Positions 20,646 to 46,259 of a stretch of DNA of 64,000 nucleotides are shown here, piece after piece. The DNA lies in the NCBI GenBank assembly GCA_050084515.1, contig CM114271.1:28024001-28088000 (forward strand). Direction: 5' to 3'. The DNA comes from Blasia pusilla. Lineage: Eukaryota. Every line of letters begins with the position of its first letter. The stretch's first letter is position 1. Under the pieces are notes generated by a model. The model made no database searches and was not told the DNA's origin. It worked only from the letters and a program-made list of their open reading frames with translations. The translations under genes and the position numbers were made by a program.

Positions 20646-20648
<3 letters not shown>

Positions 20649-20689
20649 TAACGGAGGTGAATGCAGACCGTTGACATCACTAGAACAAA

Positions 20690-21400
20690 CCGCATATTAG
20701 ATGACTCTAATAAATGAATAGGTTGAGTCATTGTTCACGGTAAATGACTCACGGTGACTCATAACCATTAGAGTGATATAAACCAAGTCATATATAGGAT
20801 ATGACTCTCCCTACCACATTGGTAAATGATTGAAGTCATTAGCTATTGAGTCATTGATATATGACTAAGATACCACGTGTGAGAGACACGTCAGAGTGCC
20901 ATGTTGGCGTATGACATGGCAAGAAGAAATGATGCAGCAAGGTGAGAATCAAATGAAAAATTTCCACGTGTCATACTTAGGATCGTTGGATTGTTTAGGC
21001 TCAATGAGACGAAGACATGTGTAATGATATGAACAAATGACTGAGTGATATTTGGTTGAAATGACTGAGTCATACGTCTTGATTGAGTTATATGTACCAA
21101 TTGCGTTGTTTCCTATTACTATATGAGTTTTTAAATGTGACTAGATTGGTTCTTAGTTACGACTATTTTGGTCATCTTATGTGTGGTATAATCGTATTTC
21201 ATAACTAAGTGAGACATTTTATTGATGGTTTGAGTCATTTATCTCATGCTTTACATGAGTGTACAAGTCATATTTCCAAACGATTTGAGTTATTAAGTTG
21301 ATTGTATGAGTTTTTATCATGACTACATTAGTCATATTTTAACCACTAAATGATATTTTGGTCGTATGAGCTATTTGGCATAATGTATGAGTCATTCACA
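20690..21400. repeat. CACTA left subterminal repeat region
   Basis: Many direct and inverted copies of ATGACT(C)/(G)AGTCAT. Confidence 0.8.
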
Positions 21401-23409
21401 CTATCAGCTGTGGTTTATTACTAGAGCATGTATTGTTCACAAATTTCCATTGCTCCTCCTGGCGATTGTTAAATCAGAGGAGTTACTCTGGTAAGTAAGT
21501 GGTGGTCATCTAAGTAACATAATCTCTTAACATAATTAGAGACTCTCTCAGATCCAGCAAGGAGTAATGTGTGAGCCTGAGTAGCATAGACAATGATGAG
21601 GATATACAAAATCTGAATCTGAAGGTCTAGAAGAGGGACATATATCAAGCAAGTAATTCTAGGGTACATGCCAATTATAATGAATGCTGAAACCTAGAGA
21701 TATATCACAATCAAAGCATTCTCTAATTGATGAAACCCAAAAATAGATTATTCATTATATGGAAGAATCAAGGTATTTACATATCAGCAAGTTGCAAGAA
21801 GGAACCAAGAGCATATGGAAACCAAACTACAAACAAATGATCTGATGGAATCATTGTGAAAGTTTACAAATTCATGAAAACCACCAAATCCCAACATCCT
21901 AATGAACTAGTTTCTTAAGATTCAACTCCGGCCATACGATTGAAGTTCCAACTACATCTCCAAGTATGAGTTGAGCAAGTTCGTCCATTGTATTTGGCTC
22001 CCATAGTTGGTAATCCCGTTGAGAAGTATCCTTAAGGTCCACTCAAAATCATCCAGGACCTATATCCTTCCCATGGAACTTATCTCGCCCACTCAAGCCC
22101 GAAACTACTCCATGACCCAAAATATTCTGATTGAGTTTTGGCTGTGTGAGGTGTACTGCATCTCCGAAACGTAGCTACATTCATACCAAATCAAAATAGA
22201 AAGTTAATGGTGAATATAAAAACATCGTCACAATTGATAAATTAGTATACTCTCAATCATTACCTTGGTGAAGGTCCATCCATCTATTGGTAAAGTCCTT
22301 GAAAAGTTGACAAGCCCCACTTGGTTGGGTTCTCGAAATAAGAATAAAAACACAAGAACTCATCCGTTGTTGTCACAAATCTACGAAAACACACATGAAA
22401 TGTCAAGGGAAAAAGTGAAAGCCTGATAATTTTACCCTTTGCTTCTTGCTATTTAGTACTTTCGAGTCACACTTTGACTCACTACCCACACTTGCAACCA
22501 TCTCGGTGGTTGCCTTCATCTTCTTCTTGATCTTTGGTGAAGCTTGTATGTCCACTATTGCTTCACCTATAGAACATTAAACTTCAAAAAGATTAATGTA
22601 TTCAACACTATTATCACCTGCGAAAATTCTCACTTTCACCACTCATAAACACAAAAGTTTATTGAATTGGTTGTTATTGTCATACATGCAGTTTGCTCCC
22701 ATGCTTGACATGTACTTCAACATTCCTAGGTCTCAGCAAGTGCAAATAGAATAATGAAAACATGGAGTAGAAAGAAAATAGAGTTGAGATATGCACCCTA
22801 GGATATTATAGTAGTCACAAATTTAGCTTTGTTAGTACTGTGGATAAGGTGAGTATGATCAATCTTCTCTTTACCTGCACAAGAGCAACAGAAAAATGCC
22901 AAAAAAATTGGTATGGTCTCAGTGAGGTGAGTGAGTAATCACTCACCATATCCAACTTGAAATTTTTCATTGCTAAAATATGGAATAGAGGCACGGAGAA
23001 ATTGGAAAATATAGGTACAAAATATGGCAGATGCTTGAGTGTTACCTTTGATCATTACACTTGAAGAGCTCTTATTCAACATCTGGCTCACCGTATCAAC
23101 ACTGTGGACTTTCTCCATTCCTATGGAATTTCAGATATACATTGCAGATCATTGTATAGTTATAGTACATCTACATTAAAAATTTCGAGAAAACTTGCTA
23201 TCTCCGAATTTAAGTGATAAAACCTACAAGAAGATATGTCAAAGATTTTCACCTATCAAAATAGTCATATCTTCAAAGCCAACATTCATGTGAGGCTTTG
23301 TCCTCCTTTTCTTAGGGGACTTCTTAGCCTCGGAAAGATTCTCAACATTGTGTGTAAGCTCATGCGATTCTTGATGACGCCCTATACAAGCCATACATAG
23401 AAGCAATTA

Positions 23410-25308
23410 GATCAAGGATGGTCTTTCTATTAAACTTTTCAAGTGGGGAGGATATTCTATTGGACCGATCCTCATCAAAGTATTGGGAGATGTTGCGATC
23501 TATGGTTTTCCTTCAACCTGGTCGCTACGGGAGATTGCTCCTATTCACAAATCAAGAAGGAAGGATTTGGTGACGAACTATCGTACTATCATGGTGGGTA
23601 GTGTTTTTGCCAAGTTGTTTGGGAAATTGGTGGAGCCAAAATTGAGCGCATGGACAAAGTCTTTCCAAAAGAGAGCACGGGTCCAAGCTGGTTTTTGCCC
23701 AACATACAACATCATCTACCATATCTTGGCCTTGCGTATTTTATGGGAGAAATCTAAGGGCAATGGGAAAGCTTTGTTTTGCGATTTCATCGATTTCAAG
23801 AAAGCTTTTGATACTGTACCTCATAAGCTCTTATGGGAAAGGCTGCAAGCCATTGGAGTACCACCAAATCTCCTAGCAGCCGTGGCCATGTTATACCATT
23901 CCGTTCGGGCCAAGATCAAAGGTTCACAAACTCAAGAGATCTTGAGTACCATCGAAGTCATTCAAGGTTGCCCTTTCTCCCCTACTCTATTTGGATTTTT
24001 CATAGATGATATCTAAAAGTGTCGGAGGAATGTGATAGTGAAGGTGTCAAGCTAGGAGAATTTGTCATCAAAGCTCTATTGTATACATATGACATCATAT
24101 TACTAGCACGTGATGGCATTAGTTTACAAAAACACATCGACACTTTGGCAAGGTTTTCTACCCAGAATCAGATGGAGGTTAATATGGAGAAGTCTAAAGT
24201 CATTATAGTGGGTACTAGATCAAATTTTTCGTTCTTTTAGAAAGGTCTACAATTAGAACAAGTGAAGAGTTACAAATATATAGGCATTGATTTCTCTCAT
24301 GACTATAGTTGGGCACTTTCCGTGCAAAAGAGAACAGAAGCTGGTTACAAAGCTCTATATTCATTTTTAAATCGGTATAGAAGAGCTCATCTTGTGTCTT
24401 GGGTTCTTAGGAAGTTCTTATTAAGAAGCTTTGTGTTGCCGGTGCTCTTATTTGGGACCCTAGTTGTAAGAAGACAGGTTGGGAGCGTGTGGAGAGGGTG
24501 CAAAAGATCTATCTATAAGAAGAATTGGGTGTAAGAAACCAAACTCCTTATACTATTCTTCTTGCGGAAATAGGTTGTCTTCCTCCAGAGGCTAATGCTC
24601 TTTACTAGACCATCACTTATATTGTAGGGGTGAGATCTCTTGATGTTTCTCGCCTCCCTCATCAAGCTTTGCGAGCCACACGTTCTATAAGATGGATGGC
24701 AAATGTGGTGACTTGGTCTTCAAAGTGGAATGTGGCGGAATGCGATTGGGACTTGAAACTGATGGCACTCCACGAGCATCTACAGAAGAAATTTCTCAAT
24801 ATTATTTGGAGCAGCCCGGGCACAAAAATGGAGTTTTATCAACTTCATGTTAATCTCATGCTTATATATTGTGAACAAGGATACCTACTTGCGAGGATCT
24901 CCACGTTCTTACGTCACATTATTGCACGATATAGAACTGGGTCTCATAGGCTAGGAATTGAGGAAGGACGATGGTTTAATATTGATAGAAGTGAACAAAT
25001 TTGTTGGTTATGTGACGGATAAAATATTGAGGATGAAGAATAAGTGTTTGTTACATGTCCAAGGTATGAAGAGATTAGACTAGCTCATAAAATAGATGTG
25101 GATAATTTATATTCTTTACTACAACTAGTGCCTTATGATTTAGGTTTTTATATTAGGGACGTCATTATTCATGGCTCAAGTGCTCTAGGCAGTAGCTAGG
25201 AGAAGGTCTTTAGGATCTTTTTCTGGGTTAGTGAAAGAATGACTTGTAATGTGTTTTTCAGCCTTTTGACCCTTTGGGTCCCACGGGCTTGATCCATTTA
25301 CCATTTAC
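23410..25308 (+). mobile_element. 5'-truncated RTE-X-like LINE (family 2)
   Basis: TNYRTIMV, FIDFKKAFD, QGCPFSPTLF, IARYRTGSHRLGIEEGRW...ICWLC; 3' tail of CATTTAC repeats. Confidence 0.9.
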
Positions 25309-26704
25309 AATGTGGAAATGAGAAAAACTGATCAGAATTTAGGGTGCCTTAATGAAACCTAAGTGGACTTATATAAGAAAAGGAACTTACTTCACGGTTG
25401 ATGGCTTGTCTACAAAACCATGATCAATTGATACATTAGACGTTGTTTCTTTTCCACTTTGAGCTAATTTTGAGACCATGCACAAAAGTACACTCAACTT
25501 CTCCTCAAGAAGTTGGTGACTTGCCTGAAGATCATTCCATTTATTTTGTTGCTTCCTCTGGCCATTTTCAATTTGGGATCTCATATCACGTAGACCTTCA
25601 TCCAATCTGGTCTACCATCTCATTCATGTGGGAAGTGATATATGATTCGACTCCCTATCAAGAATAACAGATAAATAATACAAGTTGTTAACATTTTCTA
25701 TGACAAATTTCCATCATTTTCCTTTCTATCCATGACATCATCACTAACCAATTTTGAAAACTTCTATGTAAGTTACCCGTGAAGCCCCACTAAAATCTGT
25801 ACTTGTGGGGTATGATGATGGAACCCCTTCTCTTGCTATTCCATCAGCAGAAATATCTCTTTTTGGAACCCCCTAAAACACATCGAATATTGTAGGTGTC
25901 ATTATGCAAATATTTGAAATAAAAAACAAGTACAGGTTTAGTACATAAGCTTATGGGAATTCCTAAATTGATAGAGTAGATACCAAAATAAGAACCCAAC
26001 AATTTGAAGCTATGTTTTTACAAGTGAAAGTCAAAGCTCATGTTAAGGGGCTTACTGAAAAACCGTCTAAGCCTGATGGGCCCCTGTAGTTCAAAGTTTG
26101 AACATGTGACCGAGCTTTCGTCATTTGCTCGGCCTTAAATTTTCCTGATTTGACATCCAATAGTTGACCATTTGTTCCCACTCCACGGCCCTTGCTTCAG
26201 GGTGGCAAGGGAATTATCTATGGCCTCCATTCTTTAGCCAATCAGTCTTTAAAGTTGACCTCTCAATTTTTAAGAGTTGGGCAATTTTCTTTCTTAAAAA
26301 CTCAGGATCCAAAAAAGGTACACCAACATAGATATAGGATTCATTTATATAGTTGGTAACCATTTCCATACTCACAGGGTCTGTCTACTTATCTCGATAC
26401 ATGAAAAATCGAGATAACGCATGGCTTGTACTTAGAGATCACTCAACCAAGGCTTATAACCATGAACCTTGGTTTTAAGACACTCGTTTGGCATTAATTT
26501 GCAACGAGGTTTCACATTGAGATCCTTGCATTGATTTACTTCATTTGTCCATACATCACGCTTGGATCTACTTGCCCTACCTATTGCAGAAGTAGTAACA
26601 ATGGGACAATGTGGAAATTTGAGTAAATAAAATCACAAAATTAGCAAAACTTCAAGTGCACTTTAGCCAAGTGGGATCCCCACAAAATAAAATTGACGTG
26701 AATT

Positions 26705-26706
<2 letters not shown>

Positions 26707-26789
<83 letters not shown>
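26707..26789. repeat. (AG)n microsatellite
   Basis: ~80 bp AG tract. Confidence 0.98.
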
Positions 26790-26791
<2 letters not shown>

Positions 26792-28481
26792 ACACTATTA
26801 CCATCCCATTGTAGTTGTGGTTCATAAGGCCATGAACCATATCTTTGTGGCGGGGGCGTCGGGGAAAACCACCCACCTAATGTGGGATTCCATTGCATCC
26901 CACTAGATGTCCATGCCTCACTAGGATATGGTGGTGGCGGACCACCTCGTCTAATTCCCAAGGAATTGTCTTTGTTTGAATCCCTTTGTGCATTCCTACA
27001 TCGAGGTTGAAAAGGAGAACTTTCTCTACCATGGCCTCCTCTGTGCGTTTAGGGGGGTTATGCAAGAGACACAAGACAATGAAGTCATCAAGAAAATGAC
27101 ACGAATTAAACTATCGCCCAATCTGCCTTAACAATATTACCAAAATTGCGTAGACATTTCCATTGGAGAAAATAAAAGTGCAAAACCTACCCATGACTTT
27201 TGTAAGTGATCGTGATCAGAAGAATCTTCCTCTTGCCTATCATAATCATCCTCCTTGTCAAAAGACATCATGACAATCAGATTTTGTGCACGAGTCAACA
27301 TGCACTCTTTTGGGCTTACAACACTCTTGGAATCTCCCAATTTGCTTATCTCCTTTAAGCGAAGACTTCGCCTTGATGGTTTTTTTTCCCCTCTACAAGT
27401 ACAAAATGATGTCTCTTTCTCCTACTAGATGCTATGACATTTGACACACTTCAAAAAAAACCAACAATGTAAATATTTTGAGATTTCACATAATAAGAAA
27501 ATGGCACTAATATTCATCAGCTCTTGTACTAATTAACACTCTTATTCACACTTACTGTAGCAAACGATCAGTGCTACTGAAGATGGCTGCTTTGCGAGCC
27601 TTGATTGCCAAAATTCGTTGCTTTCGCATCCCTTCGTAAGGATTTGGTAACACTTTCTCCTCCTGGTCTTGTTCAGATTCACTCATGAAATCTAAGTTAT
27701 TTGGGACACCTAAGTCTGTTCCATCCATCACACAAAGCTTCACCTCTCTATGTAGGCTTAATGGCTTCTCTTGAGAACCTTGCTCAAGTAAAGTTTGGGA
27801 AGATGGGCTGAAACCTTGAAGCACATAATCACTTGGACCCACCCTATTAAGATCCCCCTCATCACTTGGATTCACCCTCTTAAGATCAACCTCATTTTTC
27901 TGCCATGTTATATCTTAGCAGCAAGTTTCCCCTGCAACCACTATCCTATCTATGTCCAATGGACAACATGGAAGAATGTCATTATGTCCCACTTTCTTCC
28001 CTGCTATATCTACATTGACATTATTTGAGCTAGAATCTAGAAGTTTCTCTTCAAATTGTTGCTTTGGCTCTTCTTCCACATGTGCACTCATAGGAAACAT
28101 ACTCCAATCATCATCAACCACATCATCATATATACCAATCCTATCCACATGTATCTCGCTAAAAGTGGATCTTTTTCTTCTCTTTAAGGACCACAACTGC
28201 CACTCTACACCATCTAATAACTCACCACTCGTCCCACATCTTCCTTCATTGGAGAGAAGTGCTTCTATATCAACTCGCCTCCCTTTTGGATTCCATGAGC
28301 ACATATCCACAATTTGCTCTGGAAAAAAATAGAGCAGCCCCAATCGTCAAGGTTGTCAAGAAAAAACCTAAATCAACCTTTAGAACTATGTACTCTTCAG
28401 TCCAATCTTTCATTTTCAAAATCATCACTTGATGAGGTATCTTCTATACAAACCTACATCGGAATTACATTTGCAAAATCC

Positions 28482-31400
28482 CTAGATGCTACTTCTTGTT
28501 TTTCGTTTGTCAATTCTATAGCTCCTAATGCATGTGTTTACTGTAGGAATCCTCTCTGACAAGCTGATCAGAGCACGCAAGCCAATATAATCTCCATCAT
28601 CCCCGTGATCCAGTTCACTATCCTTTGCAAACACTCGACGTGCGTGAGCTTCCTTGTGCAATACAACTTTCCACCCACTTCCCTCACTTGCATCGCCAAA
28701 AAAAACTTGCTCCACTTGAGATGGAAAAACAAAAGGCTGGTCTAAACTGGATAGGCAGGACTTTAGATTGGCTAGCAAGAAGCCCTAAGCATCTCTTCTC
28801 ATTGATTTTCTATGGGACTCCCAATCTGCCCTAACCTATCTGCCTCTCATCAACACTATTGGTTGATCGACCAACCCATAATCAAAAGCAAGAATGTATG
28901 TCAAGGTTCCAACATAAGAGTATGAAAAATTGGATGGACTCGTATTCTCATCCACAAAGTGAGCTCCTATGCCACAATCAAAAGTGGTAAATGAATCCCA
29001 TCCCGTCCCGTCCCGTCACCTCGCTCTACTCGGTAATGGTTTCCATTTGCTTTCATACTTTTGTATGAAATCACCTTCGCTTGAGGTGGAATGGACAAGG
29101 CAAATGCTAATGGATCAAGTTCTAATGGCTTCCCGTTAGCCCGAGTGATCATAGCTCAATGAATCCAATCTTCAAAGGGTAAGTTGGGTTTTTCCAAGTT
29201 GTACTTCATGCAGAAAAAAAACCCAATTTAAGTAAAGATATGAAGTAAGGATTTTTCATGGTGTTTACTCTTGATTGAGACAAACAACAACCAAAAAATT
29301 ACACACAACAACAATTTTGCAATCACTCACCTATGCCATACTTCCATTGATTTTGTATTATGTAGAATGTAGTGATGTATGAGGAGTAGCAACTCGCGTG
29401 AGAGAAGTATGGGTACTCTAGCCCCTTCCAACTCCTCTCCTATTACTCCATCTTCCTCACCTTCATCCCATATTCGCGCCCTAATAGCTTCAAACCTCTT
29501 CTTATACTCAGTGATAAATACCATGGCTTCATTTTTAACATATCCTTCTGACATGCAACCCTCTGATCTCGTTTTAAACCTGAAGTACTTTTTAATTTTG
29601 CCCATGTATCTCTCTATTGGGTATATCCAGCGACAAGCCACTGGCCCACAAATATCAAGTTCCTTTATTAAATGGACAAGTAAATGGGTCATTACGTCAA
29701 AGAAGGCAGGAGGAAAGTGCATCTCTAATAGACATAAAGTGATAATGGTATCCTCACGTAGTCTTTCAAGTTGGGAAGGACCATAGACTTTGACACATAT
29801 ACTTCTAAAGTTCTTGCTTAACCTCATTCTAGTCATCTGAACTTCCTTTTTCATGAGGCCACGCAGAGAGTAAGGTAGGATTTGATGAATCAACACATGG
29901 TAGTCCTGTGACTTCATATTTCCCATCTTCTTGTTAACCACATGCTTCCTCAACTCACCACAATATCCCGTGGGCACTTTCAATTCCTAAATTCTACCAA
30001 GAACTATCATCAACTCATAAGGAGATAGTAAATAGTCTGCAATAGGTTTCACAAGACCTTCTACTCTTCGCGGATGCGGCTGCAACCACAAATGAGGTCG
30101 AACGCTTCTTGCCTCCATATCTCTTATAACCTTGACTGTATCTTTAATTCCAAATATTGTCTTTACTAAGTTTTCAGCAATGTTCTTCTCCACATGCATG
30201 ACATCCAATGTATGGCGAATGAGAAGATGCTGATTTTTTATCAAGAAATCTCGTCAAAGACAAATTTGGAACCAAAAAAAATCTTGATAATAAGACTTTT
30301 GGTAAAGGGAAACTTAAGTTGCTAGGATACTTGCCAATAAGGGAAATTTAAGAGCAAACTCCTCCTTTTGACTCCTATTTTTTTGTGTGGATCTCAAGGA
30401 CCATCTTCTCGTCCCCCGCTCTCGTCATATTCCAGTTTCTCCGCAGCCCAGGCCAAAATCTCCTCACTTGTAACTCTTTCTAGTGGTGTCCTTATTTCCC
30501 CTCTACCCTTAAAATGGATTCCATATTTCCTACCTCTGTAAGGATGAGTACAAGGCAAGTATCGTCGATGACCTCCAAAGATGGGTTATCCACATTCCTT
30601 TGAGAAATCTGATTCTACCCGAGGCGCGCATGTGGTATACGTAAGCTTCCCACCATGGCTTTGCCATGAGATTTTAACTAATGCAGGATATTCATTGATA
30701 TTCCAAAGAATCATCGGCTTAAAAGTAAACTCCCCGTGCCCACAAGGTCTTCAAACATCTTGGAGCACTACTCCCTTCCACAACTCCTCAAATTCCTCCA
30801 CTAATGGGGCAAGATAAGTTTTGATGTCACCAACATTTATACTCTCCTTACCAAGTATAAGGAGTGCAAGCATAACAATGATTTTTTTGCTTGCAACCAA
30901 GGAGGCAAGTTATAATTTACCAATAATACTGGCCATGTTGACCGGGAACTGGATTTATCTGAGAATGGATTCACCCCATCAAGAGCTAGCGTATAGCCCA
31001 AATCTACAATTTCTCATTTCTTGACTAAACTCTGGGTAAGTTTGATCTACATGATCCCCTGCTTTGCTATCACTTGCATATCTAACCATCCCATCTTTAC
31101 TGTTGTTACTTGCTTTCCAGACAAACAATTCAGACAATGTCAAACATCTGAACATTCGTCGCATCCTTGGGATGATGGAAAAATGGCGAAGAACTTTGCA
31201 GGGTACTAATGACTTTCCAACTTGCTTAAACCAACATTTTTTGCACTTTGGGCAGATTGTTGAATCTTTGAGATCCCCACCAAACAACACACATCCCATG
31301 GGACATGCATGATATGAATCATAACTCAATCCCAGCTTTCCTATAAGCTTCTTGGCTGCGTAGTAACTAGGAGGAACATGGTTGTCTAGTAGAAGAACGA

Positions 31401-32080
31401 GTTTACCAAGCAGCTTCAAGATCTCATCAAGAGCGATGTTTGGCAAGTTATGGGTAGCAGTAACATTTAAAAGCAACATCACAAAAGCTAAGATGGATAT
31501 CTTTGCCCTTGGAAAAAGTGGCTTGCATGCTTGTGCAAGCTCCGGAAATTGATCATCATCAATTCCAATGTCTACATTATTTCTTGTATCCATCGGATCA
31601 TTCCCACTATCTTCAACCCCTAGCTCATGATCCTCATCATCATGGAGGTGATTGTATTGCATAAACACATCACTCAACATTTGTTGAACATCAATATCAC
31701 CATCCAAGTGTTGCCTCTTGGATGTGTCATTTGGTAAATTAGGGTCAAGATCACAATGGGCTTCATGTATGATTTTTTCAGTTTGGTCCTTGAAGGACTC
31801 TTGATCTTGAATTGACCACTCCTCGTCAGAGGAATCCCACTTGTGTCTACTCTTTGGGATGCAAAAAAGATGAAAGCATTCAAACTGTTTTAGATGCTCT
31901 TCTATTCTATGAAGAGATAGATAAGTCCCCCTTTGCACTGATTACAAGGGCATCTCACTCTCTTAATCCCAAATTTGCGGGCCAGAACCTACTCTCTTTG
32001 CCATAATTTGAAATCGTGTGCTAAGACTCGATGTGGATGACCAAAAGGCAATCGATCTTGGGAGGTCATTGGTGGTTTCA
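28482..32080 (-). pseudogene. CACTA TnpD-like transposase (Transposase_21, DUF4218 and DUF4216-like regions), with introns and disablements
   Basis: YHACPMGCVLF, VLRHFSIIPRMRRMF, LDVMHVEKNI, MKSQDYHVL, FPPAFFDVMTHLLVHL, WIYPIERYM, DQPFVFPSQVEQVFF. Confidence 0.95.
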
Positions 32081-33139
32081 TGATAATATCTATTTTGGAT
32101 ATCCAATACAAATAATAACAAGACAATAGACTCCAATCAAACATAATATGTATCGAGGTTTCCCATCCATACAACTTTCCTAAAATTCATGTATGCATAA
32201 ACATACTATTGCAGATGTGAGAAAATCACAATTGAAGAGAGGGACAATGCGAAGGGTTTGTCAAGTACTTGTAATATAGTGATTTCACCAATATCCTTTT
32301 GACCAACTATTTTAACTCCTCCGTACATGTCACCCATTAAGTAGACTCCATTAGCTAGATGGTTCACACCATACACTAGTAATGTATGAAACCAAATACA
32401 TTTAACCACTATATAATTTTTTCCAAGCCAAGGTATAGTAATAGTGGGCCCATAAGGTTGTGGGCTGAGTAGGATATGGATTATGTGAGGGTAGATATTA
32501 AGCATCCTTGTAAAAAATGATCTTATATGATTTCTTATAAGGACACAATAGGTCATCATCGTAACCACTTGGGAGCGGCAGGGGATGGACAATATGAATT
32601 TAGCTATTGCCATTTGTTTGGGGGCAAAGTTAAGAGATTCAAGATCCTAGAATTCTAAGGATTTCATTTGGAATGGAGGCATTGTGGAGTCAATAACCTA
32701 GTAAGGTGCCCTACCAAGAATATTGTATTCATTCATCATCTGTTGCCATCTCCAATTATGAAACTATACCTTACAAGCTAGGTAGCCCATCACCACCTGC
32801 AGACAAACAGATCCTAATCAAGAGAAAATTCACAAAAAAATTTAGCAACCACCATAATGATTATTTTGTGCTCCAAAAAATTGTGAATGGACAAATTTCA
32901 AAATTGACTTGATATAAAGATTGAGTTTTGCAATTGTGGCGGTTGATTCAACGGATATGAGTATCATTTTCAAAATCAGAGGATAGGAAACGGTGAGTCT
33001 CTGTATGAAGTCATACCACCTACCTAGTATTCAAAGAAGCTCAACCCTCTTTGTATCTAAAGTTGTTACCTGAAAAACTCCACCAAAACGCCACGAGATT
33101 TTGTTCGGACACGGTGAATCTCATCTCACCACCTGAAAA

Positions 33140-33799
33140 TCAAATCCATGAAATATGGTCTCTCAAAGGAGTCTGAAGCGTGGGATCAACTTTGTGGTTG
33201 TGGCAATAAAACCACCACCTATCCTCGCCACATGCACCATGGTCATAAATAATCCTATCACATGCATAACCCTTGCTCATTGCTTTGTTCAAGCAAGTCC
33301 AGTACGTGCCATGCAATAGGACACCTAGGACAATACACCATATCCTCCCATAAATCCTCATCATGCTTATGGCATCCTCGGCAATAAAGCATGGGGCATG
33401 CCTCCATTTTCGGAGGCAAACAAGTAAAACAAAAAATCTTACACGATACGTATCTGGGCACTGTCTCACACGAAGCCCCGATTCCTCACTTTCTGCAAAA
33501 GTTCCTTGTATACCACAATTGGCACACTTGGCCGTCTTCTTCACATAATCCGGGCAAAACCACCTCCCTTCATGGTTAGGTGAAAGATCTACCCCAGGAC
33601 AAGCATTTTCAATAGCCCGGACAGATTTTGCAGTTGCGTGGAAATATCTAGCACAAGGCCCGTCGCAAACAATCAACTCCTCCCCATCCTCACAGATTGC
33701 ACAAATGTGGGCTGCCTTCTAGTGAATTCGGAGTGCAATGTATGGCGCTAAAAAGATCACCTTGGGGGCTTTCTTGGCCTGGAGCTTCGAGCGCGCCAT
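33140..33799 (-). pseudogene. EDM2-like multi-PHD-finger protein with H3-tail-like N-terminus; one premature stop and two compensating frameshifts
   Basis: ATG at 33799 gives MARSKLQAKKAPKVIFLAPYIALRIH*KAAHICAICEDGEELIVCDGPCARYFHAT...WFCPD...CANC...C/SCKIFCFTC...CPMLYCRGC...CPRCPIAWH/WTC...FYCHNHKVDPTLQTPLRDHISWI; Cys/His spacing and the terminal YCxxHxxDxxLxTPxRDH match the EDM2 PHD region as recalled. Confidence 0.85.
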
Positions 33800-35613
33800 C
33801 CTTGGACTTTCGTCAAAGTTGTATGTATACAAACTAGAACAAAAGTCAATTGTAGTAGTGTAAGACAAAGCTCATAGAAGAAAGAGGTGAGGGAAAGATT
33901 ACATCACTAGTAATGAATTGTGTGTGAATAATAGTATATTTCAAAGAGGAAAAATCACAATGTCTAGTGTATATATTTGCTTACTAATGATACGGCAAAG
34001 CACCCCTAAGTGTCGGACTCGTATGAATGACCAAGTCCTAATACGTAGTCTATGACAATATCACCAAGAAAAAATCATGACAAACACCCAAAATTAGTTA
34101 TTGTGCACACACAATTTACATCATCGTCCTATTTATTGATTTTATCTTCATGTCACATGTATATGGGGGCAGACTACTTAAATTCTTATTTGTGGTATAA
34201 CCTTGAAATGTCTCATGTTTTTCGGATTTTTTGCCATTTCAATTCTATAGTTTACATCAGGCTTGTCTATTTAAGGGTGTGGAACCCCTCCACAAAGTGC
34301 CTTATGCTCACAATTGCGAGATCCTTATATTAGGTGCATTTCAAGTGTTTGAGAGGTGTGCAATGTAGTGCCTTAAAAATATGAACACCGTAATCATAAC
34401 AACACCTTAATTTGAGTATCCATTCATCATGCATTTCAATGTCATTCCCATACTTGTCCATATTATATTAACATCACATATGTTTCGAGTTCATAATCAT
34501 AGTGTCCAATTTATGAGTCTGTATGGACTAGTATTGTTTTGAGTTAGTCTACAAAAATACTCTAGGAAAAATTTAGGAGGAAGAAAGTCCATAAAATCAC
34601 CATCTCTTGAAGGTGAAACCACTAGGCCTCGCACTAGGCTCATCAGGAAATGCAAGGGCCCTATCCTGTGGTGGCATGCACAATCATCACTACAGCATGG
34701 GCAGAATGTGTGATCACGCAGAATGTTGCCATCACACAATGTGTGCCCGGTTAGGCATGGTGTGCCAGGCCTCGTGTCAATGATAGTACTATAGAAGGAA
34801 CTCAATTGAGGAAAACAGTTATCCATGGAGAAAAACATATTACCCTCAATGCATATCCTACAAATGGCTCCGATCATGGACAACTCTCTTGAGTTGCACA
34901 GACGAGGCTTCGAATGGAAGCGCCCGTCATTAGAAGAGTGAATCCCAAAGCCTACATCGTGGCAAATGTGAAGTACCACATTGTTGACGAGACCCAGCTG
35001 AATGTAACATCTGATAGACTCAGCCTCCCATCATACTCAACCCACATCAACCATCTCAAAGAAAAGTAACACGTACGAGGCTTGCTAACTTCAGAGACAC
35101 AAAATACTCCTACGTCATGATCGTGCACAATAGCCCTGCTGTAGACGATGTCCTCCATGATGTTTGAAGGGAGTGCTGCAATGTGGTGTATGATAGTTAC
35201 GTGACCTTGCTAAATAAGAAGAGAAGATTACGAAACGATAAAGTACTACATTGCTTTCAAATGTAGACGTACCAAGAAAAATCCTATGTGCATTGTCCCT
35301 CTGTCTCGTCTCTGTCCACTCCTCTTCCCTGACGTCTCATACAACACCTCCACTTGTTAAATCTTGCACAAACGTATGATGGCTCTAAAAAAATGAGAGT
35401 GTCTCTCTTCTCAAGCCGCGTCCAAGTAGGACAGCATGTAAAAGGAAAAAAAGGAAGAAGATGGAAGTGAAGACTCAAGGACATACCCAATCAAAACACT
35501 CAAGAGCCGTAGGCGGCCTTGGTGCAGAAGGTTGAAGGAGATGAGGTGAGAAGGAAGACACGAGTAAGAGATAACAAACAAGATCCCAATTCTAAACAAG
35601 TGACATGCCTGTC

Positions 35614-35787
<174 letters not shown>

Positions 35788-35998
35788 GGAGAATTCTTGC
35801 ATGTCATGTTAAAGTCAAGCGCACTCGGTTCCAAAACCTACTCATCATGCGAAGAGAAGGACTATCCCGATGCTGGACATGACCAATATTAGGCTTGAAA
35901 TTTGAGGCGACAAAAGATCGAGGTTATAAGATTCAAGAGATGATTGACCAGCCAATCATCCACGATGCAAAAGGTCCCCATGAAGGCCTTGCGAGTTT

Positions 35999-36210
35999 TT
36001 AACTCCAATAGTAAAGACCATCGGAAGTGGGGTATGTAGAGCAAATCTCCGCCATGGACAGATCCACCAACATGTTGAAGAATCCTATTATTAGCCATCC
36101 ATATACCATCGATATAGGTCCACCAAATTGTAATCCAGTGTGGTAAAGAATGGTGATGCGTGTCAGTATCGAGATAATTAGACATCGAGAAGACAAAGTT
36201 GGAAATCAAT
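35999..36210 (-). pseudogene. Captured fragment of BAT1/GABA-permease-like amino acid permease
   Basis: SNFVFS/IISILTRITILYHTGLQFGGPISMVYGWLIIGFFNMLVDLSMAEICSTYPTSDGLYYWS matches the conserved BAT1 N-terminal transmembrane region (SMAEICSSYPTSGGLYYWS). Confidence 0.88.
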
Positions 36211-37186
36211 CTGCACATATGCAAAGAATGCGAGGAGGTCCTGGCAAACGTAGTGAGTACTAGTGGAGTGTGGCAAAGCACAGAAATCGACGATGCAGGC
36301 AATACCTTCATATTAGAGATGATAGTGCATAACCTACTCCATTTGATCAAGGTGCCATACCTATCCTGGTGGCTCGAATTGAAGATTTACGCAAGAATAT
36401 GGTCAGAATTGGGACGGGACGGTTCATGACCACCCTTGAGGAAGGCTTGGTGACCATTTTAGTTTGTTTCACTTACATACTGGATGATCAGGACATAGTC
36501 GCCTTGGCAAGGCAGTACCATCTGGGAATATATTTCAAAACTCTACTGCAAAAATCCAACCTCGATGAAGTGCAGCACCAGTCAGCCATTTCTCTAGAAA
36601 ATCTATCCACCTTTTCACCTCTGTGTCGGCCAACACTACCCGTAGCCTCACAAAAGAAGCTATTTTGTAGTTTATTTAGTTGCATTAATCCTCCTCCCAG
36701 CCCCAATGGGATCTGCCTAGTCCACTCAATGGGATGCTCTGCCATAGAAACGTTATGCTTTCTGGAGGCTGAGGCCATTGTCCCCTTAGTGTTGCGCCTG
36801 GACCACCAGAATGTGATGGTTGTTGAAGCGGCTTTAGGTGCTTTGTCGACTATTCTCCATGACAACATCAATCTAGTGAAGGGAGTAACAGTTCTTCATA
36901 CAGCTGATGCCATCCGACCCATTCTTGAAATCTTACAGGAGCATCGCACAGAAATGTTGCAACATAAGGCAATCTAGAGGGTAGAAAGGATCTGCTCAAT
37001 GCGGATCTCACCCATCTAATAATTGAAAATCCTCACGTTCACATCGCAATGGTGGACGCATTGCGACATGGCAACACCGTTTGTTGGTCTTCGGCAGAGA
37101 AGAGTCTGAAGCACCTCAACAAGATCCCCAATTTCTCTGGCGTGTTCCAAAAGGTGGACACACCTGCGAAACGGCCACCTGGTTAA
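36210..37186 (+). pseudogene. Captured C-terminal part of a SAUL1/PUB43/PUB44-like U-box ARM-repeat gene
   Basis: VHNLLHLI, EGLVTIL, SAISLENLS, GICLVH, LDHQNVMVVEAALGALST, AEKSLKHLNKIPNFSGVF; premature stop at 36975-36977 and frameshifts. Confidence 0.88.
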
Positions 37187-37384
37187 TAGTAGCGGGAGTG
37201 GTTTGAAGTTGTCACTGGAATGCAGCTTAGCAAGCGATGATGAAATATAATCTTAAACTAACACACGATGAATCATATGCCGTTTGAGTCTAATGCTTTA
37301 GGGCAACGGCCGATGGATTCTGCTCAAATCCTCCGCTCGCAGTGAAGAGTTGGGCATAGCAGGCATTGTTGTACGAGACGCAGC

Positions 37385-37625
37385 AACAATACGGATCCTA
37401 GAATAGAAGCAAAGTTGCTTCACGTTTTGGTTGGTTTGGCATCTTCACCTCATGCCATTGGAAATTTGTTGTCCTATATCATGAGTGTTGGTGCCAAGGT
37501 CAGCTTGATCCACTTCCTGGAAACTCATGTGGATGGTTTGCGTGTTCCTGTGGCCCGACTCCTTCACCTCCTTTACTCTCAATTGGGCAACAAAGTGGAA
37601 AATGGACTCACGCTCACTACCCGTG
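37385..37625 (+). pseudogene. Displaced internal segment of the same SAUL1/PUB44-like gene
   Basis: NNTDPRIEAKLLHVLVGLASSP...SVGAKVSLIHFLE...LRVPVARLLHLL corresponds to the part that normally follows NLLHLI. Confidence 0.8.
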
Positions 37626-38639
37626 AGGCTGCAGGGGTTGAATGGTTTGATTGCACAGCAGTCTTTAGTTGCATGACTCTTGGCCAATTTGCCAGTGGAG
37701 GATTTTCGACTTACTAGAGCTTATCTCTCATCAACGAGACGTGGAAAAATGCTTCCAGAAAAATGAAGTGAAGAATCACAAGAAGGCGGAAAAGAGGAAT
37801 GATTGGAGGAAGCTCAGTTACAACAAAAAAAAGGTACTAGTAGATTCGCAGCTCGTCCAGAATGCGAAACCGTCCTCAAAATTTTAGAGAGAGAGAGAGA
37901 GAGAGAGAGATTGCATCCACACCTATTTGGAGCTCAACCTCTAGAGCGGCTTTCCAAATTCACACCAATTCTTTTCAAACTGCACCTTTATTTCAATAGC
38001 ACATATCCGCAATTTGTCTCTCCCGCGCGCTCTTGCCCAACGTCGACGCTCTTGCCTCTCTTCCACGTCTCTTTGATCGTTCACACTCTCTCTCTCCCGC
38101 TCCAATGCATCTCCCACGTCTTGCAATCCCTCTCGTGTTCGTGGATCAAAACCCTAACAAAAGAGTTAATAAAATATAATACAAGAAAAAGAGGGCTCTA
38201 GGACAAGATAAGGTCGTATGTCTTCAACCCAATTCCTCGATTGCGGCCGTGCAGAACCGAGATCGAATCTGATCAGGTGCACTAGAAATTTCTAAGGCTT
38301 GAGGTGCTAACTCCCTTTTTAGAACTGGCAACATCACGTCCATACACGTAAGAGCGTTAAAGGGGGTCATTTGTTTTGTTCTAATTTTAAAGTTATTACT
38401 TTTTATAGTTTTTGGTTAAGATTTTACAAATTTTTTATTGGTAAGATATTTGGGATCTATCTTATATAGCATCACTATTAAATTTTTATAATAATTTATA
38501 ATTATTGAGTTTTATTCTCAATGCCCAAAAAATTAATTAATGCTTATAATTTTCTCTTTTATATTTGTAAAATTCAAATCAATATTTATATACTAATCTT
38601 TTCCAAATTAATTGTGTTCCATAATTATGTGTAAAAATG

Positions 38640-38880
38640 ATTCCCGTGATTGAGTGAGTCATGGAATATGACTTGCAAATGATCAAGTCATTTGTGTTAC
38701 TATTTCAAAGATTGATTTATGACTATTTCGGTTTTCTATGTCATATTAAATGATTGGACCAATTAAGTCATACTTTCAATCATTGATTTATGACTATTTC
38801 GGTTTTCTATGTTATACTAAATGACTGGACCAATTGAGTCATAGTTTTAGTCATTCATAGTAGAGTCATAAAAACCATAG
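38640..38880. repeat. CACTA right subterminal repeats, including a ~60-bp direct duplication
   Basis: ATTGATTTATGACTATTTCGGTTTTCTATG occurs at ~38711 and ~38782; several GAGTCAT motifs. Confidence 0.8.
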
Positions 38881-39379
38881 TTTTCTTCTAGTGCATTGAG
38901 GGAACGCAATATCCTCTCCTCTCTTGCTTTGACAAATGAGAGCTTCTGCTGCTCACAGATCCAGCGAGAGTCCATATGATATCTATATCATATGGATAGA
39001 CTCACCGCATGGTCCTTGCCAATGCATGAACCCTCACTCTTCGAGAAACAAATAGAGATCAAGGATCGAAGTTCAATTCTCAAAATTTCAACCTAGAGTT
39101 TGCACGGCCGTGGGACGGGACGCAAGCTCCAAGAGTGCAGGAAAATATTTGCAGTGAAGTCATAAACGACTCTAAACTCAAGGAGGGTCAAGACAAAATG
39201 ATGTGGTTTTATTAGGGTTCAGGGTATTATTTGTTGACTTGGCAATAGTTTAAATACAACAATTAGTTTTACAACTACCTACAAGCTTTTTTTAATAATA
39301 GTAATTATAATCTAGTATTATTTTTACACGTCATATTATGAATTAAAATTTATTTTAAATTGGTTCACAAAAATGCCTC

Positions 39380-40460
39380 GTCTAAGCCTCTTTTGCACTA
39401 ATCTAGTCTTTTAAAATGACATGTCATTAATTTATAAGAATTCTATTTTTTAAAGAAAATATTACATTAAAAAAATTCCATGTCATATCCTCTAGTCATT
39501 TCTAGTAATTAATTAATATAATATTATGCCACCTAGGCCTCCCTAGTTACATGTAGTTGTATTAGATTTCAATTGTAAGTGACTAACAACCCATGTCTAA
39601 GTCCTTTATGCACTAATCTAGTTATTTATAATTATATGGCATTAATTTATACTAATTATATTTAAAAATATTTTTTAATATCCTAAATAAAATTCCATGT
39701 CATACCCTCTAGTCATTCTTAATAACTGACTAATACTATATTATCCCACCTAGGCCTTGTCGTACGCATACACATCGCCACACAACAAATATCGCAGTCG
39801 ACAAATATACACACAAACCAGCACGATCCCATGCTAACTCATGGCATCCAAACAACGACACAAGAAGTACCAAAATATCTCCAATAAATCCAATAGATCC
39901 AATCTCTCTCTCAACACCATAGCTGTCAAATGTGTGCATTCTCACATGTATCTCAATGTCAAACCAAATCCACTCTCCTAATGAGAGGTTTGAGTTACAC
40001 TCACAAGGCAAACAAGACTATAGCTCCGCCGCCTCATGCCAAGAGGTTCAACAAAGAGAGAATGAGCTCTCAAGCTCTCTCTCCTTGAGGTATATCCCCT
40101 TTCCTCTCCCAAGCTCTCTCCTCGGTAACCTATACTCGCAAGTCACCTCCTTGGCTTTTGACCCACTGTAGCGAGTCAAGGGCCACTTCCCACAATGGAA
40201 AGTCAACTCTACCAAACATGGAAACTTACCCAAAATAGTGAGTTTCTCTATATGGCTCCAAATGAGCCAAAACGAAGGGGAAATTTGATCTCTCAGGTTT
40301 CCCGAAACCTTAGCAGGTCATCCTCAATCTCCTAAGCCTGTCCTCCTCTACTCGCAAAGGCGCTCTACCAGATCTCTCCGATCTATCCTAAAAATTCGTG
40401 ACAGCCTTTTAAGTTACATGTACTTGTATTTTAGTTGTATTGGACTTTAGTTGTAAAGAC
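39380..40460. repeat. ~215-bp tandem subterminal repeats of the outer CACTA, second unit split by a solo LTR
   Basis: GTCTAAG...GCACTAATCTAGT at ~39380 and ~39595; ACCTAGGCCT...AGTTACATG continues after the insertion at 40404. Confidence 0.75.
39758..40403. mobile_element. Solo LTR-like element, family B (646 bp)
   Basis: TGTCGT...CGTGACA termini; 4-bp TSD GCCT; second copy in opposite orientation at 56710-57347. Confidence 0.85.
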
Positions 40461-43081: not shown

Positions 43082-44867
43082 TAAAATGATCTTGCAAAGT
43101 AATTGCATACCACAACAAATATGTCATTTGTGATTGGAAAAATAAAAATAAAAATAAAACTAACTGTCTTGTGTTAAAAAGACAAGATAAACAAGATTTT
43201 TTTGAATATACTTATTAAAATAAACGAAATATGTTAAAATCTCACATTGAAAAATAAACAAGACTAATGTTGGATAATCTATATTATTATTGGAGAGTGT
43301 CTTCTTGATTTGCAAACACCTCTATGCTTTGTATGTGGCAACTGGGCAACAAGAAAATGTTTCAATAAGAAAATTTAGATTTGTGTGCCGTATCATTAGT
43401 CCCTTCATGGGCTATACACTAGCAAAAACTGTTCAAACCCTTTTTTGTTTCCGTAGGCGCAAGCACCTTACTAGTTTACATTACCCGTCGTTGGGCCGGT
43501 GACTAATTGAACCCAAAAACAACCCCATACAATACACCTCCAAGTGTTAAAATTGGATAGGCTGAAAAGGCCATGTGTCAAAAGAGAGATGTTTTAAATT
43601 CCATAAGACACCCTCCCGTGATAATATGGAAGATTTGGAACAGGGGAAGAAGGATAAGATCGTGGGCTTATATTCCATCGGAAAGGAACGTTGTGATGCG
43701 GAAAGTGAAACGGACAGGGGCTTCGCAATGCGGGAAACAAAGTCGCTGGTTCGCCCAGCAAAGACGCACCCCCTTTCACTTTATCCTGACAATCCACGGG
43801 ACGGCGTGAAACGATGGAAGCCTGTCTTATCTGTCCCGTCGGCGTCCACCCTCTAACCAACCAATGCAAAACGGACGGATGCGGACGCACCGACCGGCCC
43901 GTCCATCCATCCATCCAGCAACGGTATATGGCATGGACATGCGTGATAGATCCAGCGCATATCACGCCATGGGTGGCTGCATGCATGACCATTAGTGTTG
44001 CTGTGGAAGGGCATGTTCCATCACATCATCCATCCATCGATGGCACGTCTCTCTCTCTCTCTGGCTCTGCCGCACGTTGTCTAGGTCTTCTGCAGTGCCC
44101 CTCACATGTTTCTCTCTTTCGCATGCACCGCTCTCTTTGTTCCTCCTTCTTCTGCTTCCGCTGCGCGATTCAGCTCGTCGAGTCTGGGCTGGTCTGTTGC
44201 GTTCTGGACTCTGGTCCGCCCTGCTCGCTCTGCAGCGAGGGTTCGTTCGGCCTCGCATCAGGTCCTCATAATCATCGATCGCCTGCCGCCGCTCTTTGAT
44301 CTTTCTCGATCGAGGTGCACGAGGCGGTTTGAGGTCGTTTGGCGCACTCTTACACAGGGGTCAGCATTAGAACACGTTTAGAATTACCTTCCATCGACCC
44401 TGCTGGGGTTGAAGAGAGTGAGAGTGAGAGAGAGAGAGAGAGAGGTTGAGCGAAGTCGAGAGGTCTAGGGCGTGTCGGTTAGGGCGTGAGCGGAGTCGAG
44501 GTTGATTTGGAAAGACACAGGAGCGGTGAGCAGCGGAAGGCTGTCTTCGCCCTTCGCCCGGGGGCTCCATTGAGTTTCGCGGCCAAGTGTCGTTGAAACT
44601 GGCGGATAGTGTGGGTGGAAGACGAGGAAGTGGCCATCTAGGTACTGATACTTCGAGGCCGTGAATTAGGATAAAGTGGGGCAGGTTAGAACAGGACAAG
44701 TGTTGTGTTGATCGTGTCGAGGATTAAGCCGGACGGAAGGAAGCCAAATTTGACTTGAAGGGGTGAGGGGACGTTCAGACGAGGAGAAAGCGAAGAACAC
44801 TTGGGAGGGTTATTTGTGTTCGCTGCCACCAGGCCTGGAGAAGAGGTAGAGAACCTCAGTCGTGAAA

Positions 44868-46259
44868 ATGCAGTCTATCGTAGGTCAAGGCGGGTTTGGA
44901 GAGAAGAGTGGGAAGAGTGGTCTGGGGAACAGCAGCAGGAAGAAGAGGAAGGGAGGGAGGAGAACATCGCATGCGCGTCCTTTCTGCGGAGACACGGGCA
45001 TGTCGGAGGGGGGAAATCGGGAGGGAAGCGTGCAAATGTGCTGGGATGAAAAGGGTGTGGACGTAGTGGGCGTCGACGAGGAAGAGGAGGAGTTGGAAAG
45101 CTGCAGCGTGAGTCCAGCCTCCGTCTCGCAGAGGGAGACAATGAGTTCCTCCTTGTGGAGCACTCTGCCCGATCACTTGCTTGATAGCATTCTTGCGCGT
45201 TTACCCATACAAACGTTCTTTCGTTGCCGCTTGGTGTGTAAAAGTTGGAACACACACATGTTCACGCGTAGCTTTTTGGAAGCCTATGCGGATATTCCTT
45301 CGCAAGGGCCTTGGTTTTTCTTCTTTACTCACGATGAGAGGAACCACGTATCTACTTACGATTCGGCATTGAACAAGTGGCACCGGATCCCGCTCTCTCC
45401 ACCCCACAGTAACACTAACCCTTTCTCAGCGGCAGATGGTGGTCTGGTTTGCTACTTTTCCTACGAGAATGGATCTAAGAGCGTTGTGGTTTGCAATCCT
45501 TTGACAAAGTCATGTCGCAGATTGCCTCCTTTGCTGAAAACTCCTTCCAAGGTTACTATGTTAGCCATGGCCTTTGACAGAGTCGCCAAAACCTACAAAG
45601 TGGTGGTAGCCGGGGTCGCGAAGTTCGATCATGGTAGGTTCTTGAATACAGCAGAAGTCTATGATTCACAGACACAGTGCTGGACGACAACCGGAAACAT
45701 TCCTGCTACCCACACACTCAAAGGGAAACCCATATTTTCTCAAGGATTTCTGTACGTGCGGAGTCAAGCGCAGCGGAGTTACCTGTTGGCTTACAACATG
45801 GATCAAGGGTCGTGGAGTGATTTGCAGGCTCCTTTACCGTCTACGGTTAGGCACGGAGAGCTGTTGGAGTGGCAAGGGCGAATCATGATGGTTGGAGAGT
45901 TGGAAGAGGATCACAAGATCCAGAGCATATGTATTTGGGAGCTTCAAACCGCAAGCTTGAAGTGGAAAGAGGTTGACCGATTGCCGGCTGGACTCTTCGA
46001 GGGCTTCTTTGGAGATAAGGACTATTTCCAATGTAACGAGCGGGACGATGTGATATTGGATTGGTGCCAGGCAGGTCGCTTCGTGCTGCTATTTACCTAC
46101 AACCTCTATGATATGAGAGGGCGATGCAAGCTACTCGTCTACGATCTCTCGAGGAAGTCGTGGCAGAAGTTGCAAAGCTTCTCAAGAACAGACGTTTGTG
46201 GGACAGGGCGCATCATCAGGGGAATTTTCCACGAACCCAGATTGGATGCGACGGCATAG
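44868..46259 (+). CDS. F-box protein with Kelch-like beta-propeller (LCR/FBX6-HWS-UFO-like group), intronless CDS
   Basis: Uninterrupted 463-aa frame from ATG 44868 (downstream ATGs are alternative starts); F-box LWSTLPDHLLDSILARLP...CRLVCKSWN; GGLVC, VVCNPLTK, AEVYDS, WKEVDRLP, C-terminal EPRLDA. Confidence 0.93.
   Translation: MQSIVGQGGFGEKSGKSGLGNSSRKKRKGGRRTSHARPFCGDTGMSEGGNREGSVQMCWDEKGVDVVGVDEEEEELESCSVSPASVSQRETMSSSLWSTLPDHLLDSILARLPIQTFFRCRLVCKSWNTHMFTRSFLEAYADIPSQGPWFFFFTHDERNHVSTYDSALNKWHRIPLSPPHSNTNPFSAADGGLVCYFSYENGSKSVVVCNPLTKSCRRLPPLLKTPSKVTMLAMAFDRVAKTYKVVVAGVAKFDHGRFLNTAEVYDSQTQCWTTTGNIPATHTLKGKPIFSQGFLYVRSQAQRSYLLAYNMDQGSWSDLQAPLPSTVRHGELLEWQGRIMMVGELEEDHKIQSICIWELQTASLKWKEVDRLPAGLFEGFFGDKDYFQCNERDDVILDWCQAGRFVLLFTYNLYDMRGRCKLLVYDLSRKSWQKLQSFSRTDVCGTGRIIRGIFHEPRLDATA

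Follow-up and report, generated by a model that had tools for sequence, protein, structure and literature searches.

A decayed gene for a stand-alone EDM2/NSD-type triple-PHD protein within a proposed CACTA element of Blasia pusilla

EDM2-type proteins are host tools that let transcription pass through the heterochromatin caused by transposons. The present analysis concerns the remnant of a small gene for a PHD array of related type, located on the minus strand (33140..33799) inside a proposed CACTA (En/Spm-type) transposon of Blasia pusilla. It lies in a stretch of 64,000 nucleotides (nt) of GenBank assembly GCA_050084515.1 (contig CM114271.1, positions 28,024,001 to 28,088,000 of the forward strand), which is called the window throughout and whose own numbering is used for all coordinates. 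It is close to certain that the remnant is a decayed member of a family of stand-alone tri-PHD proteins. The window locus itself is an ordinary pseudogene, and the interest is in the family revealed by it.

The closest described counterparts of the family are Arabidopsis EDM2 and EDM2-like (ELP) proteins, with which it has in common the atypical three-part array PHD-1st_NSD, PHD_NSD, PHDvar_NSD and a tail of the form ...YC..H....L.TP.R.H.... Family members carry the Pfam domains PF23011, PF22908 and PF23004; above the curated cut-offs among the relatives searched, P0001 scores 27.7 for PF23011, P0038 scores 31.2 for PF23004 and 28.3 for PF22908, and L001 scores 32.4 and 25.8 for the same two. 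In the second finger the family has a Cys (FFC) where EDM2 has a His. The family proteins measure ~220 amino acids (aa) against ~1,300 aa for EDM2. The mango and pea EDM2 and EDM2-like proteins are matched at their arrays, around residues 220–450. A DNMT1-RFD-like N-terminal domain is present in the mango EDM2-like protein, P0040 and L002, whereas it is absent from the 187–245-aa family members scanned and has no match in the window. The family likewise lacks the C-terminal methyltransferase-like ELP domain of EDM2 (defined for the EDM2 group in the available text of PMC7529245), and the alignments of 1,200–1,300-aa EDM2-like proteins to the window by tblastn end at about residue 450. The same text describes the binding of EDM2 to chromatin marked with H3K9me2 and its recruitment of ASI1/IBM2 and EDM3/AIPP1; by recruiting RNA-binding partners it enables transcripts to pass through heterochromatin (PMC7529245).

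Two further groups of proteins resemble the family at the array. The family profile matches human NSD2 (residues 647–799, E 1.5e-12) and NSD3 (3.9e-11) in the PDB, and the C-terminal half of a family model superposes on the PHD5-C5HCH tandems of NSD1/2/3 that were solved with H3 peptides; the family, from a different kingdom, has no SET, PWWP or other domain. The best named matches are long liverwort PHD proteins (Mp1g03210, 768 aa; Riccia sorocarpa, 692 aa, E 1.7e-11; Calypogeia fissa, 747 aa). These carry the array at the C-terminal end, as would the donor of a 3' capture, but they are 27–30% identical to the family and have 450–540 extra N-terminal residues without a Pfam domain. As for transposon proteins, VANDAL VANC and En/Spm TnpA would be of the same kind, that is, element-borne lineage-specific proteins acting on host chromatin, with no sequence relationship to the family. 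VANC and TnpA bind DNA, while the family has a histone-reader fold; a transposon-borne chromatin-acting module is also known in the chromodomain of chromovirus integrases. Accessory proteins of transposable elements that modulate integration or counteract silencing are described in the available texts of PMC13547354 and PMC10398659.

In the window, a stop-to-stop frame of 192 codons occupies 33140..33718 of the minus strand. It lacks its own ATG, and its C-terminal end reads FYCHNHKVDPTLQTPLRDHISWI. Pfam gave matches under the curated cut-offs, namely PHD-1st_NSD (PF23011; E 4.8e-4, 20.6 bits against a cut-off of 27) and PHD (E 3.8e-3), and a homologue search with the frame as query, restricted to longer proteins, returned 0 of 258 candidates at E<=1e-3. 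A phmmer search of 1.84 billion representative proteins found 58 matches at E<=1e-3, 10 of them at <=1e-10 and 2 at <=1e-30, the best being a protein of 245 aa (P0001, E 1.2e-35). The long named matches fall into three groups: liverwort PHD proteins (Riccia sorocarpa, 692 and 1320 aa; Marchantia polymorpha Mp1g03210 and Mp2g00350; Calypogeia fissa, 747 aa), a Mesotaenium protein, and angiosperm EDM2 or EDM2-like proteins (mango, pea). Every one of them is aligned at its PHD array, composed of the Pfam trio named above. By sequence comparison, the frame thus matches PHD arrays far beyond chance. When 67 relatives, including EDM2-like proteins of 1,200–1,300 aa, were compared with the whole window by tblastn, matches were found only at 33065–33838, which indicates a single PHD locus with no other EDM2 part nearby.

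The preliminary description of the locus had proposed a multi-PHD array of EDM2 type at 33140..33718, without an EDM2 N-terminal or methyltransferase-like domain in the vicinity and located ~1.1 kb upstream of the transposase gene TnpD on the same strand. The array is borne out by the matches to EDM2 and EDM2-like arrays and by the profile match to NSD2, the missing domains by the confinement of the tblastn matches, and the position by a distance of about 1.2 kb on the same strand. The label "EDM2-like" is right for the type of PHD array and wrong for the placement of the family, which is an EDM2/NSD-type array outside the EDM2 orthologue group.

The best phmmer matches are short proteins whose alignments span the whole frame (P0001, 245 aa; P0002, 222 aa; P0004, 220 aa; and others), and a profile search added ten further members (P0068–P0077, 211–278 aa). 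At their start the short proteins have a basic leader of the form M(A/T)R.K..., and the invariant QK(A/S)(A/P)H.CAIC comes next. Intact relatives of ~211–278 aa (about 220 is typical) consist of the leader (MARPK.K.K-like), PHD-1st, PHD, and a variant PHD with a C5HCH-like tail; the leader may have a role in nuclear import. Full-length, uninterrupted alignment to the family profile was obtained for 17 of the 29 short-family proteins. The remaining 12 end early or are interrupted, 7 of them with unaligned tails of 16–80 residues that look like frameshifts (P0009, with two stretches and a 45-residue tail, was counted as interrupted), and some of the early ends may be contig ends. In an alignment of 16 members selected for intactness and 40–79% identical to P0071, 52 columns are conserved at >=90%, and 27 of these are Cys or His, which speaks for the zinc scaffold having been constrained over a long time, with the reservation that the rows were chosen as intact.

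The contigs behind all short-family sequences (0.8–13 kb) are from Logan, JGI and ENA, and no member was found among the named or annotated proteome entries matched, those of three annotated liverworts included. The family is probably missing from named proteomes because it is located in repeats, and annotation pipelines may be hiding it for this reason. A metagenome scan yielded 11 loci from 69 pattern matches, of which only L001 (an intact array with a stop in the leader) and L003 (frameshifted) belong to the short family. The frames upstream of these two (129 and 125 aa) show no match to Pfam, to one another or to the window. Five other loci (L004–L006, L010, L011) are NSD-like genes of other organisms. 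Also recovered was L002 (295–4209, plus strand), with 1305 uninterrupted codons, a DNMT1-RFD domain and a PHD array; it is an mRNA-like EDM2 orthologue that groups with angiosperm EDM2. Neither the genome-contig nor the viral-contig collection contained a relative of the family alignment.

The window gene belongs to the P0071-type family by homology over its whole length, basic leader included, from 33799 to 33143. The gene and its lesions, all on the minus strand, are as follows.

33140..33799, minus strand: remnant of the tri-PHD gene, 660 nt and intronless, from the family ATG (33797–33799) to a TGA (33140–33142); tblastn alignments of family proteins run from 33799 or 33796 to 33143.
33719..33721, minus strand: in-frame TAG at the invariant Gln of the family (Q35 of P0071; Gln in 16/16 intact members).
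33143..33718, minus strand: 192-codon frame that keeps the ancestral reading of PHD1, of most of PHD2 and of the C5HCH-like C-terminal part, with 44 middle codons out of frame.
33545..33547, minus strand: zinc ligand Cys93 changed to Tyr (TAT), from the family alignment.
33443..33445, minus strand: zinc ligand Cys127 changed to Arg (CGT), from the family alignment.
33425..33433, at about 33430, minus strand: loss of 1 nt from a T-run (A-run when read on the plus strand), right after ...RFF, which shifts the family's CFTCLPP... to another frame.
33387..33389, minus strand: zinc ligand His146 changed to Leu (CTT), from the family alignment.
33299..33306, minus strand: 4-nt insertion after ...AWH, which returns reading to the first frame.
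33258..33485, minus strand: 75-codon frame in which PHD2 truly ends and which contains the third finger (CFTCLPPKMEACPMLYCRGCHKHDEDLWEDMVYCPRCPIAWH), from the frame list and the family alignment.

The leader, MARSKLQAKKAPKVIFLAPYIALRIH, lies directly upstream of the 192-codon frame and in the same frame, with its ATG at 33797–33799, and the TAG separates the leader (MARSKLQAKKAPK...) from the PHD array. A 42-nt GT..AG intron around the TAG was considered and ruled out, as the stretch is homologous in frame to the coding leader of the family. After ...RFF the family continues with CF.CLP....C.LH.C..C...........C.RCP..WH, which in the window is found in the other frame and not in the 192-codon frame; in agreement, P0008 aligns to the window by tblastn in two frames (33799–33425 and 33434–33312). 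The two indels place 44 of the 192 codons off-frame, including most of the third finger, where they take the place of six conserved ligands. By an arithmetic estimate, these 44 codons would stay open by chance in about 1 case in 8, so the long open frame is no evidence of function. When the gene is read through with X at both breaks, it aligns to P0071 without gaps over 192 of 192 positions (57% identity, E 9e-80) and retains 45 of the 52 conserved columns and 24 of the 27 Cys/His columns.

With a nonsense codon, two frame-breaking indels, three ligands gone and a broken transposase alongside, the window copy does nothing. The preliminary description had also suggested an old acquired gene with its own start and stop. 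This is upheld for the family, which is monophyletic, ~220 aa long and conserved in its ligands, and it fails for the window copy, where the family ATG is cut off by the TAG in addition to the indels, the lost ligands and the broken TnpD.

The features of the surrounding element are listed next.

20678..38893, minus strand: proposed CACTA element of 18,216 bp, with the termini CACTAGAACAAACC... / ...GTTTTCTTCTAGTG.
29330..31941, minus strand: TnpD-type transposase remnant, with Transposase_21 in five overlapping frame pieces followed by DUF4218 (E 2.6e-34); broken.
35999..36205, minus strand: amino-acid permease (BAT1-type) fragment in a 68-codon frame (AA_permease_2, E 4.6e-7, positions 3–68 of 427).
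36202..37733, plus strand: captured and rearranged fragment of a U-box/ARM E3 ligase (SAUL1/PUB type), covering residues 598–1044 of a 1045-aa Marchantia paleacea relative.

The termini (20678 and 38893) are the sole pair given by a terminal scan of the window; they agree at 13 of 20 bases, with identity over the first 8, and are flanked by a 3-bp target duplication (CAT / CAT at 20675–20677 and 38894–38896). The subterminal motif [AG]AGTCAT/ATGACT[CT] occurs 50 times in the window, with 17 of the matches in three 500-bp bins (20500–21499 and 38500–38999) and fewer than 3 in every other bin. A tandem 62-bp subterminal repeat is found at the right end (38711–38843). On the minus strand the order is: 5' end, U-box/ARM fragment, permease fragment, (GA)n tract, 177-codon frame, PHD gene, TnpD. 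The upper end of TnpD is about 1.2 kb from the PHD stop codon, and TnpD lies downstream on the same strand. Beyond it the element contains frames without a Pfam match and a nested reverse-transcriptase piece of a long interspersed nuclear element (LINE). As regards a TnpA-type second protein, the minus-strand frames at 26644–29155 matched no Pfam family. The splitting of Transposase_21 over five overlapping frame pieces indicates that the element is an old, dead copy.

A second CACTA-type transposase is located at 3713–4995 on the minus strand, where a 225-aa frame matches Transposase_21 at E 4.1e-47. The DNA is only ~67% identical to that of the transposase at 29330–31941 over 290 nt; this low likeness and the lack of an adjoining PHD gene assign it to another CACTA lineage. 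A 177-codon open frame with no Pfam family (34497–35030, minus strand) lies between the PHD gene and the captured fragments, and this stretch, like the other parts of the element, is repeated in contigs of the organism. A 165-codon frame that overlaps the permease fragment (35892–36386) had no match, ESM Atlas included.

Small shares of the stretch are carried by four DNA runs of the same organism. Contigs of the DNA runs X1–X3, and of X5 from the same sample, were placed on 29000–35500 at >=80% likeness. The type of X5, noted as "RNA?", is a guess, and its 673-nt contig over 33259–33817 was not used for expression; likewise, contig depth was not used for copy number or for gene ranking. The placed contigs number 455 (X1), 183 (X2) and 113 (X3), and are mostly 80–95% alike; of the 30 bins, all are covered in X1 and in X2, and 29 in X3. 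The gene borders are crossed by single contigs (32998–33248, 33731–34191, 33588–33834, 33793–34037 and 33779–33979). As both borders are crossed, the repeated unit comprises the gene and its flanks, and the module is not confined to this copy, a point on which the preliminary description could have failed.

The same contigs show which lesions are shared. An extra A is present behind 33430 in 3 contigs of X1, 2 of X2 and 1 of X3, and behind 33425 in 1 contig of X5. By depth, the extra A at 33430 is missing from most contigs, so the T-run deletion may be common to many copies; the T-run site reads RFFVVLVC... in P0002, which has a different source. At 33302/33305, 2+2 nt are absent in 2 contigs of X1 (depth 35.3 of 38.4) and 1 of X2 (25.5 of 31.5), and 4 nt are absent at 33302 in 1 contig of X5. 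An A>T change at 33388, which restores His146, is found in 5 contigs of X1 (39.1 of 39.1 depth), 3 of X2 (31 of 34.2), 1 of X3 and 1 of X5, so that almost every other copy has the His base there. Among the differences listed, the defects of the window copy are thus partly private.

On balance, we consider it probable that the window gene is a pseudogenised copy of an accessory reader gene in the repeated body of a CACTA (En/Spm-type) family. In such a family an intronless, stand-alone PHD gene would be located between the 5' subterminal region and TnpD. The reading draws on the place and orientation of the gene in the element, its amplification with its flanks, the many decayed members, and the absence from named proteomes. 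A wider proposition, put forward tentatively as possible, is that a bryophyte CACTA lineage has long held, across species, a third gene beside TnpD and TnpA for a conserved, stand-alone EDM2/NSD-type triple-PHD reader that, supplied in trans by intact copies, would shield the elements against heterochromatin readers or direct them towards particular chromatin. Some DNA transposons, then, may carry a chromatin reader of their own.

Several observations weigh against this assignment to a transposon. The linkage between the family and a transposase is seen in this window only; the placed contigs are 200–470 nt long, and none joins the PHD gene to TnpD. The metagenome loci L001 (1867 bp) and L003 (1495 bp) end too soon to include a transposase, and no part of the element matches their flanks. 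Beside the transposase at 3713–4995, neither DNA nor protein comparison detected a PHD copy. The element demonstrably holds captured host genes. Selection is read from ligand conservation only, among members picked for being intact, and the predicted histone binding from the likeness in fold of a moderately confident model. The two trees differ on the closest host lineage, with a sister group in the 40-row tree only, and therefore fix neither the donor nor the time of acquisition.

Accordingly, the alternative that survives best is that the tri-PHD proteins are an ordinary host family of bryophytes, possibly multi-copy and fast-evolving, a whole copy of which was transduplicated into one CACTA lineage, never served it and now decays. 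We regard this as unlikely, though it deserves serious weight. CACTA transduplication is evident in the very element, which holds a scrambled U-box/ARM fragment and a permease fragment of 66 residues; moreover, the window copy is dead, the scans of metagenome, genome contigs and viral contigs disclosed no second transposase linkage, and the other CACTA transposase in the window has no PHD gene. The U-box/ARM fragment follows the residue order 598–646, 766–1044, 648–768, is intron-free, has a frameshift at 36992, and is 60–72% identical to Marchantia paleacea and Riccia proteins. The PHD gene differs from such captures: it is complete from start to stop by the standards of its family, colinear, oriented with the transposase and part of a multi-species family, and its identity to the nearest named proteins does not exceed 30%, while the ARM fragment is partial and highly similar to its host relatives. 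The claim of the preliminary description that the module is more diverged than a neighbouring capture is therefore correct. A host family is also difficult to reconcile with the lack of members among the named proteins of annotated liverworts, where the matches are long and 27–30% identical, and with the 12 truncated or frameshifted members of 29, which would be unusual for a constrained host gene. Finally, the copies are diverged (80–95% alike) like the rest of the element, and some of them keep the frame and the His ligand.

The relation of the family to host proteins was examined in quick tree searches of the PHD array, with support given as the Shimodaira-Hasegawa-like approximate likelihood ratio test (SH-aLRT). 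A branch with SH-aLRT 100 divides the short family from all other rows, whether the family is represented by 7 of 40 rows or by 17 of 50. The window sequence falls within the family next to P0071 and P0073, and an SH-aLRT 100 branch sets the family apart from the EDM2 clade. In the 40-row tree the family is sister to liverwort proteins of the Mp1g03210 type with support 98, a relation not recovered in the 50-row tree. Over the array, the window sequence is 27–30% identical to the nearest liverwort proteins and 24–27% identical to EDM2-like proteins. Two of the long PHD proteins, P0014 and P0063 of Calypogeia fissa (747 and 748 aa), are >90% identical to each other and come from two large records; these may represent host gene duplicates, or be repeats themselves.

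These values bear on the view that the array is a recently captured exon of a host EDM2 or EDM2-like gene, a pack-type transduplicate lacking any separate history. The array is of EDM2's type and captures do occur in the same element, yet such an origin is very improbable, given 24–30% identity to EDM2-like and long liverwort proteins over the array, a conserved leader, start and stop that are foreign to EDM2, and a separate, long-branched clade. Near-identity to a host EDM2-like exon, which would have told against the preliminary description, is not seen among the proteins matched. Least credible of all, despite the 192 open codons and the GT...AG pair around the TAG, is that the frame, as it is or spliced or recoded, is the working gene of the window copy, as the would-be 42-nt intron is homologous in frame to the coding leader, the TAG falls exactly at the invariant Gln, the off-frame codons (open by chance in about 1 case in 8) cost six third-finger ligands, three further ligands are gone and TnpD is broken.

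The AlphaFold model of P0071, obtained with a 16-row alignment, has a predicted local distance difference test score (pLDDT) of 74 and a predicted template modelling score (pTM) of 0.72, with the leader disordered. In Foldseek, its C-terminal half matches the PHD5-C5HCH tandems of NSD1/2/3 with a probability of 1.0 and a template modelling score on the target of about 0.6. The whole model loosely resembles the PZP domains of JADE1, BRPF1 and AF10 (E 4e-5 to 4.5e-4 for JADE1 and BRPF1), which bind the H3 tail. ESM Atlas returned generic NSD-type PHD clusters only for P0071. From this likeness of fold we infer that intact members of the family may be nuclear readers of the histone H3 tail. Intact copies would then supply a predicted H3-tail reader in trans. 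A bare reader of this kind, without the other domains of EDM2 or its partner-binding regions, would sit on the element's own chromatin and could compete with host readers as an anti-silencing decoy, by mimicry. Such a decoy role is the simplest and the most plausible of the roles considered, though rather unlikely in absolute terms. Tethering of the transposition machinery to particular chromatin is the alternative role, and a less likely one.

In full-text searching, supplements aside, no description of a CACTA-borne PHD gene of EDM2/NSD type was found, and in a 2026 atlas of Arabidopsis transposon products (PMC13547354), again supplements aside, the word PHD does not occur. Chromatin-acting accessory proteins of transposons are already known as a kind, and an EDM2/NSD-type reader would be a new form of it. 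If the wider proposition is true, this would be the first EDM2-type reader borne by a DNA transposon and a new class of counter-defence or targeting protein. A transposon family with a bare copy of a reader that the host uses would be a candidate for molecular mimicry in the conflict between host and transposon, or for chromatin-guided integration. The family is tractable, with about 17 natural intact sequences that are small and predicted to fold, and with structural relatives solved with histone peptides.

The remaining features of the window are of other kinds. LINE-type RVT_1 pieces are located at 14304–16575 and 23411–24013 on the plus strand, the second of them within the CACTA element and probably a nested insertion. 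Genes of a Copia-type long terminal repeat retrotransposon (gag, integrase and RVT_2) occupy several frames at 9906–12709 on the minus strand. Of the host-type genes seen in the window, only an uninterrupted 469-codon F-box/Kelch frame at 44850–46256 on the plus strand is clearly intact. There are long microsatellites of (GA)n/(TC)n at 20085–20646, 26707–26790, 35616–35784 and 62488–62617, two of them within the element. Just beyond the right end of the CACTA element, the segments 39758–40000 and 57095–57347, ~17 kb apart, form an inverted pair with 82% identity and may be the ends, or two copies, of another element.

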